Positions 48,918 to 53,205 of a DNA stretch of 64,000 nt are shown here, one piece after another (within the stretch, counting starts at the first letter, position 1; every line of letters begins with the position of its first letter). The DNA is taken from the NCBI GenBank assembly GCA_944386365.1, contig CALXAT010000001.1, positions 213,028-277,027 on the forward strand, in the 5' to 3' direction. Origin of the DNA: an uncultured Clostridia bacterium (GTDB taxonomy: Bacteria; Bacillota; Clostridia; TANB77; CAG-508). A model generated the notes under the pieces. That model worked only from the letters and a program-made list of their open reading frames with translations. It had not been told where the DNA came from and searched no databases. The translations under genes were made by a program, and so were the position numbers.

Positions 48918-50769
48918 ATGTGTGGATTTACTGGCTTTGTAAATATAAAAGAAAAATTTAAACAAGATTCTAAAATAATTTTAAAGAATATGAATCATAC
49001 TCTAGCTAGAAGAGGACCTGATGAAGATGGTTACTTTATTTCTGACTGTGCTTTCCTTGCACATAAACGATTAATTGTTATAGATCCAGACGGTGGAAAA
49101 CAACCAATGATTGAACATACATCCCATGGAGATTATATCATTTGCTATAATGGACAAATATATAATACAAAAGAACTTCGAGAAATTTTAATACAAAATG
49201 GATTCGCATTCAAAGGTCATTGTGATACAGAAGTCATTTTAAAAGGTTATATTCATTTTGGAAAAGAAATTGTACATCATTTAAATGGTATTTTTGCTTT
49301 TGTTATCTGGAATACTAAAACAAATGAATTGTTTATGGCAAGAGATCATTTTGGTGTAAAACCTTTATTTTATTCTATTCATCAAAACACTTTAATATTT
49401 GGTTCAGAAATAAAAGCAATATTTCAATATCCTGGAATTGAAAAGATTTTAGATAGCCAAGGAATATCCGAACTACTCGGTATTGGTCCTAGTCATACAC
49501 CTGGTACAACAATTTTTAAAAACATTTTCGAGCTAAAACCTGCTCATTTTGCAATATTTAATGAATATGGTTTACAAATCAAACGTTATTGGAAATTACA
49601 CTCAGAAGAACATAAAGATAATTTATCGAAGACTTGCGAAAAAGTTCATTACTTATTAAAAGATGCAATTGAACGTCAATTAGTATCAGATGTGCCTTTA
49701 TGTACTTTCTTGTCTGGTGGTTTAGATTCTAGTATTATTACAAAATTTGCAGCAGATTTTTACGAGAAGAAAAAATTGCCGCCTTTGGATACGTATTCAA
49801 TTGATTATGTAGATAACGATAAAAATTTTGTTAAAAGTGATTTTCAGCCAAATTCTGATAACTATTATATAGACTTAATGTGTAAGAATTTGCATACGAA
49901 ACATCATAACATTGTAATTGACACACCAGAACTTGCTTCTTACTTATATGATAGTATGATTGCTAGAGATATGCCTCGGAATGGCTGATATTGATTCTTC
50001 CTTATTGTTATTTTGTAAAAATGTAAAGCCTCAAAAAACAGTTGCCTTAACAGGTGAATGTGCAGATGAAATTTTCGGTGGTTACCCTTGGTTCTTTAGA
50101 GAAGATGCTTTAAATAGTGGTACCTTTCCTTGGTCAATTGCAATAGATGAAAGACAAACATTATTACATCCAGATTTAAGTAAAAAAGTACATTTAAAAG
50201 AATATATTGATTATCGATATCATGAAAGTTTAGAAGAGGTTGAAATATTAGATACAGATTCTAAGGAAACTGCTGAAAAAAGAAAAATTTCTCACTTGAC
50301 TTTAAATTGGTTTATGCAAACACTGTTAGACCGTTCTGATAGAATGGCTATGTATAACGGATTTGAACTTCGTGTGCCATTTTGTGATTACAGGTTAGCC
50401 CAATATGTATGGAATATTCCTTGGGAGATGAAAGCTTTAAATGGAAGAGAAAAAGGATTACTCCGTTATATTTGTAGAGATTTTTTACCTGCTGAAATTG
50501 TAGATAGAAAAAAATCACCATATCCTAAAACGCATAACCCTACGTATTTAGCTAAAGTAAAAGATATGCTAACAAATATTATGGAAAATCCAAATGCACC
50601 AATTAATGAATTGTTAAATAGAAAATATATTTTAGATATACTAGATACAAATGGTTCTAGTTTTACTAGACCTTGGTTTGGACAATTAATGACTGGGCCT
50701 CAACTTATGGCATATTTGTGCCAAGTGAATATGTGGCTTGAGATGTATGAGCCTAAAATTGAGTTGTAA
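48918..50769 (+). pseudogene. asnB: Asparagine synthase (glutamine-hydrolysing) with +1 frameshift near 49973
   Basis: N-terminal ORF (MCGFTGFV… Ntn glutaminase; …FLSGGLDSS… PP-loop) stops at …IARDMPRNG*. The remainder (…GMADIDSSLLLF…GECADEIFGGYPWF…) continues in the +1 frame. Deleting the C in cctCggaatgg gives a single ~616-aa frame. Confidence 0.75.
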
Positions 50770-50776
50770 AATGTTT

Positions 50777-50807
50777 TAGAGGTCGCTAATTGCGACCTCT
50801 ACTTTTG
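50777..50807. terminator. Bidirectional terminator shared by asnB (+) and the small membrane-protein gene (-)
   Basis: agaggtcgc-taat-tgcgacctct perfect stem flanked by T-tracts on both strands. Confidence 0.8.
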
Positions 50808-50963
50808 TAATAATTCAATTACTTTATCCCATGGAATAAAAATCATAGCAAGTCCCAATACTAAAAGTGCAACTGCCTCATCCACATCATCCCGCCAAGC
50901 CATGATTCCTGCTACAATTGTCACGCATACACATGCGACAATTTTTAGAATAATAATTTCCAT
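50799..50963 (-). CDS. Small membrane protein (54 aa), elevated local GC
   Basis: AAGGAGAAAAAGG RBS then ATG (MEIIILKIVACVCVTIVAGIMAW…). The stop codon is immediately followed by the terminator hairpin. Confidence 0.45.
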   Translation of the reverse strand: MEIIILKIVACVCVTIVAGIMAWRDDVDEAVALLVLGLAMIFIPWDKVIELLQK

Positions 50964-51080
50964 CCTTTTTCTCCTTGCCAATCGGCTTTCTAAACTAAGT
51001 TAACGAGTTACCATTAATTTCTTAGAAGGAAAGTTTCTAAAAAATTTTCTTATATTTTATCATATTTTTAACAAAAGTAA

Positions 51081-51114
51081 AGAGTAGTAGATAATATATT
51101 GTATCTACTACTCC
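51081..51114 (-). terminator. Terminator hairpin downstream of the HD/dinD genes
   Basis: agtagtagat-N10-atctactact perfect 10-bp stem. A T-rich tract follows on the minus strand. Confidence 0.6.
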
Positions 51115-51250
51115 TAGGTGTCGTCCGAAGATTTCCACTGCAAGTTTTTACAAGGACTTTCTACGTTTAATCACAAGTTTTTTGAATAACTTTTTATAGA
51201 TAATTGCATTTTTTATCTTTTAGTAAATTTATACTGATACTTTTTTATAT

Positions 51251-51811
51251 TTATAATAATTCCATTGCATTATTATACTTTTCCTTATAAAACTCTTTGC
51301 TTGTTTCTGATAACTTACTATAACTTCTTTTTAATTTTTCTACTACAAAGTTTCTCCCTTCTTCTATATTCATATGTTTATTGACATATGCTAGATACAT
51401 TAAGCTTGGTATACTATCAAAATGAGATATTGCATCTGCATCAGCTACACACTTTTCTTCTATGGTTAATTTCGCATTATTTATACTTCCTCTGTGATTT
51501 AATATACATTCTTTAACTTTATTTATCTTTTCCTCTTCATAATTAAACTGTTTTAAAATATTTTCAGCAATATTGGCTCCGTGTATATGGTGTAACTCAT
51601 ATAAACTATAGTCTGTTATAGATGCAATATCATGTAGCCATGCTGCGATAATCACAACTTCCTCATCTGCCCCAAATTTCTGGGCTAATATTTGTGCATT
51701 TTTTACAACTGCTTCTATATGATAATAGCATCCTATTCCAAATTTATTAGAAGATTCGCTTGCTCTTTTATATATTTCTTTTTCTAAATAATTGATAATA
51801 TCTGTTCTCAT
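51251..51811 (-). CDS. HD-domain phosphohydrolase
   Basis: 186 aa. H…HD motif (…YYHIEAVVKNA…AAWLHDIAS…) and a downstream …DADAISHFD… metal-ligand block. Confidence 0.75.
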   Translation of the reverse strand: MRTDIINYLEKEIYKRASESSNKFGIGCYYHIEAVVKNAQILAQKFGADEEVVIIAAWLHDIASITDYSLYELHHIHGANIAENILKQFNYEEEKINKVKECILNHRGSINNAKLTIEEKCVADADAISHFDSIPSLMYLAYVNKHMNIEEGRNFVVEKLKRSYSKLSETSKEFYKEKYNNAMELL

Positions 51812-51836
51812 TTAAATTTCTCCTTGATATATTTTT

Positions 51837-52694
51837 CTATTTATCTTTTGGCAATTTGTTGTTATTTGCTATCTTTTTATTCTCTAATTTTACTCTTCTC
51901 TCTAATTTCTTTAAATCTTCTGCTGGTTTTAAATTTTCAGGTTTTATGCCTCTTTTATTTAACATATTTCTTACACTTAAGTTATTATCTACATGCTCAT
52001 CAGTTATACTTTCTTCTCCATACATATCTTTTTCAGTTACATTGTAATTCGTCATTTCTGTAGCTAGATTTTTTGCTGCAATAGTTAAAGTTGGTAAAAA
52101 ATCTGCAAGAGGTCTATTTTCTTTTACTCCATATTTTGCTTTCATTTGCATTGTATTTAACCCACCAAATAACGCCGAATCTCCTTTCGAACGAATTCTT
52201 GCAAATCCTAAATCATCTACTCCCCTTTCATAAATATTTTTAGATAACTGCTTTTCAGATTCTTTTAGTTTTTCTCTTGCTTCTAATCGATTCATTAGTC
52301 TTATCCTGTCTTCAATTATTTCTTGTTTTCTAGTTTGTACTGCAAAATATGTTTGAGCAAATGCAATCTCTTCTTTTTTGGAATCTCCATTTTGAGCTAT
52401 TAAATAACAAGCATATCTTGTTAGCATATAATCTTCAACTTGTCTTTTAGCGCCTTTTCCTAAGTCTATCATTTTGCTAACCTTAGCAAAATGATCTCTT
52501 ACACTTATACCAGCACTTTCACAAGATATCATAGCTTTATTTATTACCTCTAAAAAATTTCTCCACTGTGTATACCCCAATTGAATCTGTAAATCTCTTG
52601 CATACCAAAATTCTATATTGTCTTTTTCTTCCGTATTTATAATAGAATCAAACTTTTCTTTTAATTCTAATAGTTTTGATTTTTCAAATTCCAT
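51837..52694 (-). CDS. dinD: DNA-damage-inducible protein D (DinD; Bro-N/KilA-N-like N-terminus)
   Basis: [34 protein letters not shown]…[58 protein letters not shown] is near-collinear with E. coli DinD. Start placed at ATG 52694, with AAGGAAAGTG upstream. Confidence 0.85.
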
Positions 52695-52775
52695 AACTAT
52701 CACTTTCCTTGTAATGTTTACTCATAATAATATATTCGTATTTTTTATTGCTTTTTTAGCATATTGTTACAATAT

Positions 52776-52997
52776 TTATGATATTATTGTATGATATATT
52801 TTAAAACATTTGTTTGTATTTGTCAAGTGCTTTTCATAATATTTATTTTTATCTATATCATTTAATTTCATAAGAAGTTTCTTTTCCATAACTTCTTGAA
52901 AAGTTGGTCCATTCTTATTAAATGTACGAATAACTTTATAGTTATCTTTTGATTTCTTTTTTATATTTTCATTCTCGTTATTTTTACTTATCATCAT
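52776..52997 (-). CDS. Hypothetical small protein (73 aa)
   Basis: ORF only; Lys/Asn-rich; no RBS check performed. Confidence 0.3.
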   Translation of the reverse strand: MMISKNNENENIKKKSKDNYKVIRTFNKNGPTFQEVMEKKLLMKLNDIDKNKYYEKHLTNTNKCFKIYHTIIS

Positions 52998-53094
52998 TTC
53001 TCCCTTTTATAATTTTTTTTAGGTAATCACAATAAATATATTAATTTTTATAAAATGTAAGATTTATACTTTTTGAATTTTCTTACTCGCTCTA

Positions 53095-53205
53095 ATGATA
53101 TAACCTCGTGTCAATTTCTGACATCCAATGACTCGGACCTCAACTTATGGCATATCTTTGCCAGGTAAATATGTGGCTTGATAAATATCAGCCTAAAATT
53201 GAGTT
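53095..53205 (+). pseudogene. Degenerate duplicate of the asnB 3' end (asparagine synthase gene remnant)
   Basis: ~110 nt ~85% identical to 50660-50770. One frame still reads QLMAYLCQVNMWLDKYQPKIEL*, against asnB QLMAYLCQVNMWLEMYEPKIEL*. Upstream of this the frame is broken. Confidence 0.6.

Follow-up and report, generated by a model that had tools for sequence, protein, structure and literature searches.

What does a second copy of a gene's 3' end, lying downstream of the gene itself beyond a group of unrelated genes, record about the assembly of a locus? The question is raised by asnB, which encodes a glutamine-hydrolysing asparagine synthase, in a 64,000-nucleotide (nt) stretch of DNA from an uncultured Clostridia bacterium (GCA_944386365.1, contig CALXAT010000001.1, positions 213,028-277,027), analysed here as a whole and referred to as the window. 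An initial annotation of this DNA had taken the second asnB end for the scar of a site-specific integrative element or, alternatively, for the product of a deletion between tandem asnB paralogues. Our analysis shows that the asnB end is a cassette-collecting hotspot in many related gut Clostridia, and the second end in the window is probably the distal junction of a small inserted cassette.

The 3' end of asnB is duplicated downstream of the gene

Alignment of the two places bore out the claim that the asnB 3' end is duplicated: positions 50695-50778 and 53135-53218 form an ungapped direct repeat of 84 nt, 86% identical, which with one 1-nt indel extends left to 50689 and 53128 and has AATGACT in both copies. 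A 44-nt degenerate pattern for the repeat found only these two matches in 64 kb, with 0 expected (100 shuffles). As also proposed, the displaced copy still encodes the AsnB C-terminus, reading GPQLMAYLCQVNMWLDKYQPKIEL and then a stop codon apart from one additional C. The length of ~110 bp first assigned to it was too great, as the first ~25-30 nt of 53095-53205 bear no likeness to asnB and form part of another conserved segment, the P-arm described below. The extent of the full repeat unit (R), from ATGAC to the end of a hairpin, was set from locus L136 (L-numbers label the stretches compared), whose two copies agree at ~98% of positions along ~130 nt that begin with ATGAC, include the stop codon and close with the terminator hairpin, and past the hairpin are unrelated; the displaced copy of the window is without the hairpin portion. 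The patchiness of local GC content noted initially is real, with up to 0.38 at 50650-50949 against ~0.25-0.31 in the surroundings.

The junction recurs in related species behind a conserved segment

With the C-terminal half of AsnB as query and one genome per species we retrieved 80 loci, every one belonging to an uncultured gut Clostridia species of low GC (~515 further asnB relatives lie outside this set), and viewed them to 10 kb downstream of asnB; a metagenome scan with the P-arm/junction pattern added 59 contigs, bringing to 139 the loci inspected for asnB copies. A nucleotide profile of the asnB end located one to three extra ends downstream of asnB in 16 of the 80 species (L002, L004, L007, L009, L011, L012, L015, L016, L018, L025, L032, L035, L043, L051, L052 and L072). 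All are on the asnB strand. Profile positions 31-37 are the starting point of nearly every one; the handful of exceptions, which begin further in, are truncated or weak. The metagenome contigs repeat the arrangement: where a contig covers enough upstream sequence, a complete asnB is in most cases present on the same strand, and arrays are again seen.

Aligned over 37 units at first and then over 69, the junction lies 26 codons ahead of the asnB stop. Every full-length displaced copy (78 of 78) is preceded by a homologous, conserved segment of non-asnB sequence, the P-arm, which falls into four alignable types (A-D) with the motifs TTCTTAC, YGTRT and TTTYTGACA and the end ...GAC. Identity with asnB opens at AATGAC in type A and 1 nt further right, at GAC, in types B-D. 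The P-arm has a TGA in the asnB frame and hence is not decayed asnB coding sequence, and its profile matched only beside displaced copies in the window and the 80 loci. Its type C abuts at least eight unrelated gene families at distances of ~190-420 nt, and P-arms overall are joined to at least ten unrelated cargo families. That a single type adjoins so many families makes the P-arm a module in its own right rather than a neighbour's promoter region, and its interpretation as the upstream region of an adjacent gene was rejected on this ground. Tandem duplication of a repeat-gene-P-arm unit was likewise rejected: repeat units outnumber P-arms by one, and no P-arm stands without a repeat, which fits the successive insertion of circles made up of repeat, cargo and P-arm.

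Other identities for these elements were also considered. Neither P-arm nor repeat matched Rfam as a structured RNA; the RNAalifold consensus energy of the P-arm was 0 on both strands (55 non-redundant units), and the same units had only a weak hairpin, inside the coding repeat. As a sigma-70 promoter the P-arm gave just a weak 9/12 match in type A and nothing conserved among types, and no convincing dif/Xer-like site was seen in repeat or P-arm, as judged by eye only. The distance from asnB to mutS, the conserved far flank, is 0.5 kb in L079, 1.1 kb in L066 and up to at least 9 kb in other relatives, and the interval is therefore a variable hotspot.

Cassettes shared between species

Between the window and L136, the stretch 51837-53132 is 90.9% identical over the whole blast match and ~93% within the block, whereas the asnB of L136 is only 73% identical. 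The left edge of the shared block is the DinD stop codon; the P-arm, at the other end, is nearly identical to that of L136, and the right edge lies within 2 nt of ...CCAATGAC, past which identity drops to ~65-70% in the asnB-like copy and then to none; the displaced copy of L136 resembles the asnB end of L136 itself (~98% through the hairpin). With the block so much more alike than asnB, and the break exactly at the junction, these comparisons indicate that the cassette consisting of DinD, a 73-residue open reading frame (ORF; orf73) and P-arm has moved horizontally. Equivalent differences were found between L012 and L016 (cassette 92% identical, asnB 78%) and between L012 and L043 (83% and 72%). 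Such sharing across divergent asnB genes argues that cassettes cross species boundaries and that their distal end is the P-arm/asnB joint.

Conspecific contigs were looked up by two flanking proteins, the P-loop kinase-like protein downstream of the island and the DUF5662 protein upstream of asnB (48235-48792), and 23 contigs from several samples were read for each. Every contig that reaches the island has the gene order of the window. The island is fixed in this species, in which it is probably no longer moving; different species, in contrast, hold different cassettes and share some of them by horizontal transfer.

Organization of the block between the two asnB ends

The features of the locus are listed in Table 1. 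Only minus-strand genes separate the two copies, as the initial annotation stated, and there are four of them (the hydrophobic ORF, the HD gene, DinD and orf73). That they carry their own terminators also held: besides the terminator-like hairpin directly 3' of asnB (50777-50801) a second follows the HD gene on the minus strand (51115-51080) and ends the unit on that side. The further assumption that the 50.78-53.1 kb block is a single unit did not hold, given that only 51837-53132 acts as a horizontally shared module. In L005, which is without a displaced copy, the hydrophobic ORF is collinear with asnB and ~85% identical, like asnB itself, which makes the 2.3-kb block composite; the same comparison showed no identity jump at the boundary of R. 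A second position, next to asnB, has variable content: in the window it is taken up by the HD gene together with the membrane ORF, in L004 by a NUDIX gene, and in L001 it is empty. It extends from the proximal hairpin to the DinD stop codon. The small gene orf73 is kept beside DinD in L004, L052, L107, L112, L126 and L136. Neither orf73 nor the hydrophobic ORF had a match in family searches.

Table 1. Coordinates of features in and around the asnB-mutS interval of the window (aa, amino acids).
Feature	Position	Strand	Basis or remark
asnB, glutamine-hydrolysing asparagine synthase	48918-50769	+	Pfam GATase_7, Asn_synthase; TIGR01536
Proximal repeat unit R (attL-like)	50689-50801	+	Last 26 asnB codons from ATGAC, stop 50767-50769, spacer, hairpin 50777-50801
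Hydrophobic 54/60-aa ORF	50799-50981	-	ORF list; sits between asnB terminator and HD operon terminator
Recurrent non-coding module of ~80 nt	51063-51143	-	Holds hairpin 51115-51080, end of orf73-DinD-HD transcription unit
Non-coding segment of 75 nt	51139-51213	.	92% identical to L002 12242-12315 and L025 4196-4269
HD-domain phosphohydrolase	51251-51811	-	Pfam HD 3.5e-14
DinD homologue, Bro-N domain	51837-52703	-	NCBIfam PRK11525 3e-108, above cut-off; PADLOC PDC-S13 1.9e-117
73-aa ORF (orf73)	52776-52997	-	Always between DinD and P-arm in type-A cassettes
P-arm, conserved non-asnB segment of ~95 nt	53041-53132	.	Abuts displaced asnB ends; right end of shared block
Displaced asnB 3' end (attR-like)	53128-53218	+	86% identical to 50689-50778; extra C; stop 53203-53205
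Distal hotspot terminator	53272-53240	-	Terminator scan
P-loop kinase-like gene	53300-53884	-	Between displaced copy and mutS
Two ORFs in distal hotspot part	54006-54290, 54491-55273	-	ORF list
mutS, conserved far flank	55441-58068	-	

The ~80-nt module beyond the HD gene is 86-90% identical in L136 (4086-4165), L124 (524-603) and L139 (2478-2560) and is present in L005 (~11100-11173); it had no Rfam match. It is composed of the hairpin GAGTAGTAGATA...TATCTACTACTC followed by CTAGGTGTCGTCCGAAGA, and stands at different hotspot positions in different species. The 75-nt segment lies downstream of the HD gene in the window, and in L002 and L025 it is found from the start of an AAA/DUF4143 gene to the P-arm; it may be the remnant of an older or lost cassette junction. 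In the distal stretch 53240-55273, no P-arm or repeat follows the genes.

Cargo of the cassettes

The cargo between junctions is varied. Almost all of it is encoded on the minus strand, as are most genes in this part of the window and most ORFs downstream of asnB in the relatives. Commonest are a protein of ~320 aa with an ORF6N domain (23 clustered ORFs in the 80 loci) and DinD (9), one or other of which lies downstream of asnB in 32 of the 80 loci; the ORF6N gene is found with all four P-arm types. Run on the cargo of relatives, PADLOC assigned ORF6N to PDC-S05 (5e-119) and the AAA/DUF4143 protein (440 aa) to PDC-S01 (6.6e-139). Together with the PDC-S13 match of DinD, these assignments make phage-defence candidates, as predicted from such models, the dominant cargo. 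NUDIX, HAD and GNAT genes are further cargo, as is a DUF6036 nucleotidyltransferase accompanied by a 111-aa protein. The last two form a two-gene module by type-D P-arms (111-aa protein and 168-173-aa nucleotidyltransferase), found at L012 10744-11593 and 15907-16741, L016 13745-14594 and L043 9597-10431, and hence twice in one array in L012, where the copies are 93% identical. From its make-up, it looks like a toxin-antitoxin or defence pair.

DinD homologues also occur in phages. Streptococcus phage Javan290 (L147 2110-5024) has the order repressor-DinD-integrase, and in Streptococcus satellite phages (Javan302, Javan733 and others) DinD lies in the lysogeny module or within ~2 kb of the prophage end, the usual place of prophage-borne exclusion or defence genes. 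Its position between repressor and integrase fits an accessory role. Descent of the island DNA from a phage or plasmid was considered and rejected, the only matches being distant ones to dinD, at ~70% nucleotide identity.

The asnB gene

Upstream of asnB lie DUF5662, rpmF and a gene of the TetR family. The asnB gene itself is divided into ORFs of 356 and 262/269 aa by insertion of a single nucleotide near 49977. The insertion reads CCT-C-GGAATGG (window 49960-49990; L004 ~6416-6440), was confirmed by the nucleotides of four independent metagenome assemblies (L081, L085-L087), with the same split gene calls in L084, and is present in the species-level relative L004 and missing from seven other relatives. 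Compared with L004, each half of the window gene has a ratio of non-synonymous to synonymous substitution rates (dN/dS) of 0.06 (dS 0.7-1.0), equal to that of an intact control pair. Such a ratio suggests that the gene is not dead, and that the rare CGG codon is a site of programmed +1 frameshifting (recoding) or that the enzyme functions in two pieces.

Codon usage changes at the end of the gene. The GC content at third codon positions of the last 26 codons (window 50692-50769) is 0.36 compared to 0.18 in the upstream 300 codons, or roughly 0.24 compared to 0.14 when corrected by hand for obligatory Met and Trp codons, in a genome of 28% GC. In the window and 79 relatives, GAG, AAG and CAG are enriched among these 26 codons. 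At Leu codon -10, 69 of 75 species use CTT and none uses TTA or TTG; Leu -10 and -21 are nearly always CTT, while upstream Leu codons are mostly TTA or TTG. Such a bias suggests a constraint on the nucleotides themselves, or repeated replacement by element-borne copies.

Recombinases and prophages at the asnB end

By Pfam, no recombination, conjugation or mobilisation gene was found among the island genes of the window, with no search aimed specifically at relaxases. The sole tyrosine recombinase in the window is an Xer-like gene at 24188-25181, 24 kb from asnB, which scores below the cut-off of the XerC/XerD models and appears frameshifted, residues 10-269 and 264-335 of its L060 homologue being in two frames. 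In L060 the Xer-like gene is intact and lies 2.3 kb upstream of asnB; L080 has a XerD. Phage-type tyrosine integrases are located by rpmF/DUF5662 just upstream of asnB in L018 (6676-7817) and L149 (6709-7500), the latter contig being classed as viral. Genes for large serine recombinases are present in L016, L032, L046, L049 and L080, at least 6 kb from asnB or upstream of it; that of L032 (14780-16849) lies past core genes and abuts a truncated peroxiredoxin gene.

In another lineage, 14 IMG/VR proviruses (L150-L163, ~35% GC) have a large serine recombinase directly beside a truncated asnB. The enzyme has 467 aa with Resolvase, Recombinase and Zn-ribbon domains (e.g. L150 1-3213). The provirus asnB ends in ...PWFGQL-NTT and a stop codon, and its identity with asnB ceases at ...GGTCAATTAA, that is, at ...CAATTAA/ (the slash marking the break), 0-5 nt from the cassette junction of the window. 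The same stretch of asnB is thus an attachment site for unrelated elements. As for the type of joint, the provirus and type-A joints overlap at the AA of TTAATG, but the cassettes also carry ~130 nt of homology. A large serine recombinase beside the junction is absent from the window hotspot and from all related hotspots.

How the cassettes may have been inserted

We consider it probable, at roughly 0.6, that a recombinase supplied in trans inserts the cassettes and that RecA-mediated shuffling follows. Recombination would occur at a fixed site 26 codons before the asnB stop, at ...CAATTA/ATGAC.... The loci show that each insertion adds one unit made up of the asnB-like last 78 nt with stop codon and terminator hairpin, the cargo, and the ~95-nt P-arm, that asnB remains complete, with the older end displaced downstream behind the P-arm, and that tandem arrays are built through repeated insertion. 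The P-arm/asnB joint would be made by an enzyme encoded elsewhere, on a helper element or by the host, as for cis-mobilizable elements (CIMEs) or pseudo-staphylococcal cassette chromosome (pseudo-SCC) elements; on the best reading, the cassettes would be non-autonomous and flanked by attachment (att) sites like these. Exchange among the repeats, dependent on RecA, would then reshuffle cassettes, cargo and repeat sequences. The evidence favouring a dedicated recombinase is the transfer between species despite short identity, the retention of the P-arm at all 78 full-length copies and the use of asnB as an attachment site elsewhere.

A possible but more doubtful account dispenses with such an enzyme. 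A single ancient P-arm/asnB-end junction would be propagated by RecA exchange via the ~130-nt repeats and the asnB and mutS flanks, with cassettes cut out as circles and re-inserted, or swapped between genomes after DNA uptake, and with gene conversion keeping the copies asnB-like. The hotspots are indeed without a recombinase; gene conversion and repeat mosaicism are directly visible; a common origin from one junction would fit the P-arm types, which can be aligned; the stretch from the hairpin to the stop codon of DinD or ORF6N also varies in cargo, without a junction having been left there; and species that have no displaced copy nevertheless show variation in the asnB-mutS interval. Yet cassettes are 91-93% identical between species whose asnB is 72-78% identical, and uninterrupted identity in the repeat between species that share cassettes runs over only ~15-20 nt, which would make it a poor substrate for RecA: considering minimal efficient processing segments, homology broken at such short intervals should render RecA-mediated insertion very inefficient. 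Moreover, a merely passive P-arm would be unlikely to stay full-length at every one of these copies and beside ten or more cargo families, and in the provirus lineage this asnB position serves a bona fide recombinase. Much less credible is the notion that ORF6N (~320 aa, with a C-terminal H-x-R...D...GAS motif) or DinD (Bro-N) itself provides mobility, as a homing-type nuclease or novel recombinase acting on the asnB end. Both have KilA-N-like DNA-binding domains and are often the first gene after asnB or adjoin the P-arm, the usual place of an integrase, but both are missing from many cassettes with the same P-arms (AAA/DUF4143, DUF6036, 235-aa, 195-aa and 340-aa families), both match PADLOC defence-candidate models, and in phages DinD is an accessory gene beside a normal integrase; Pfam and PDB sequence searches gave no nuclease or recombinase domain, the phospholipase D-like motif being a reading by eye. 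Decay of a tandem asnB paralogue, with the displaced end as the leftover of a second gene, is contradicted by the loci and was rejected: the fragment does keep the asnB reading frame, its sole point in favour, but no N-terminal or middle part of a second asnB exists in the 80 genome and 59 metagenome loci, which also removes the deletion between paralogues proposed as an alternative in the initial annotation. The left edges of nearly all displaced copies, besides, fall within the same few nucleotides after a conserved non-asnB segment with an in-frame TGA, and an array may hold up to three displaced copies.

Insertion by a recombinase in trans has a number of observations against it as well. 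The motif, phmmer and tblastn screen of all loci for tyrosine and serine types found no recombinase in the asnB-mutS hotspot of ~140 loci, the window included, where the initial annotation had already remarked on the lack of an integrase. It had concluded that the element was decayed or non-autonomous; the second term is apt, but the first was not borne out, as no integrase-bearing parent at the asnB end was found within 10 kb of asnB in the 80 species and 59 metagenome contigs, nor in the viral collection. Viral contigs contained neither repeat nor P-arm, save for one chance match to a phage terminator adjoining tRNA genes. No empty site was found among the conspecific contigs (23 per flanking protein), and no excised circle was seen. 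L002 and L025 are 95-100% identical in asnB and cassette, but only 68-86% in the repeat units, and the proximal copy of L107 is a hybrid; gene conversion is demonstrably active among the ~130-nt repeats, and hence the identity break at the junction could stem from the original joint or from later overwriting. Gene conversion also defeated placement of the crossover from hybrid repeats, and so did the type-D P-arms of three species, which have moved together with the left portion of the displaced copy. Finally, the four P-arm types are homologous, and a single ancient junction may have been spread by recombination. The scar of a site-specific integrative element proposed initially therefore stands as an insertion junction of mobile DNA, made probably by a site-specific recombinase and less probably by RecA acting on the ~130-nt repeats.

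A bolder and rather unlikely extension would make the asnB end an integron-like capture platform, in which the ~230-nt composite of P-arm, asnB end and terminator is the recombination site of the cassettes and a recombinase from elsewhere in the genome or from a helper element stacks defence cassettes equipped with promoters and terminators, in a system distinct from integrons, SCC and CIMEs.

Relation to known systems and significance

CIMEs and site-specific accretion at the 3' ends of housekeeping genes have been described in streptococci, with fda, tRNA-Lys and rpsI as targets, CIMEs being deletion derivatives of integrative and conjugative or integrative and mobilizable elements that occupy the same site with a cognate integrase (PMC7563491, citing Bellanger et al. 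2011). Like CIMEs, the asnB cassettes are integrase-less islets between direct repeats that include the 3' end of an intact target gene, form tandem arrays and are very common relative to autonomous elements. They differ in having no parent with a cognate integrase in ~140 loci, in the length of the repeats (~130 nt plus the ~95-nt element-side arm), and in target and host: asnB, in uncultured low-GC gut Clostridia. SCC and pseudo-SCC elements form tandem cassettes at the 3' end of rlmH (orfX) in staphylococci, and many have no recombinase and use CcrAB in trans. They share with the asnB cassettes the stacking at a housekeeping-gene end, the many recombinase-less members and the accessory or defence-type cargo, but SCC repeats are ~15-20 nt and members bearing ccr are common, whereas the asnB cassettes have no associated serine recombinase. 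The prophages of L150-L163 use the same conserved stretch of asnB, but are 27-40 kb phages with their own integrase that leave asnB truncated, not restored, have no long repeat and no similarity to the P-arm, and belong to another host lineage (asnB ~50% identical).

Phage-defence cargo is known in chromosomal integrons. As in these, the asnB cassettes are small, mostly single-function, of one orientation and split by a recurring unit resembling a recombination site; unlike integrons, no intI adjoins the asnB array, the P-arm is not a folded imperfect palindrome (attC), and each cassette comes with terminators and probably promoters of its own. Hotspots without an integrase that are turned over by homologous recombination include minimal mobile elements, core defence hotspots and the enterobacterial mutS-rpoS region, which likewise are variable intervals between conserved genes (here asnB and mutS) with defence-type cargo and no mobility genes, but do not have a repeated, nucleotide-precise junction module at each cassette boundary. 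With neither a parent of the CIME kind nor intI and attC, the asnB cassettes represent a variant: att-flanked, integrase-less cassettes with defence-type cargo, at a new target and with an unusually long composite junction.

Taken alone, the window is a modest finding, one fixed islet without an integrase. If homologous recombination alone has been at work, the family would offer a clear case of a duplicated gene end seeding a self-propagating cassette array. If a dedicated enzyme acts in trans, the ~230-nt site and its target, the asnB end, would provide a defined means of finding that enzyme, and position would mark out a catalogue of candidate defence genes (DinD/PDC-S13, ORF6N/PDC-S05, AAA-DUF4143/PDC-S01 and the DUF6036 pairs); small-genome gut Clostridia would then have a new and simple route to gather and exchange phage-defence genes.

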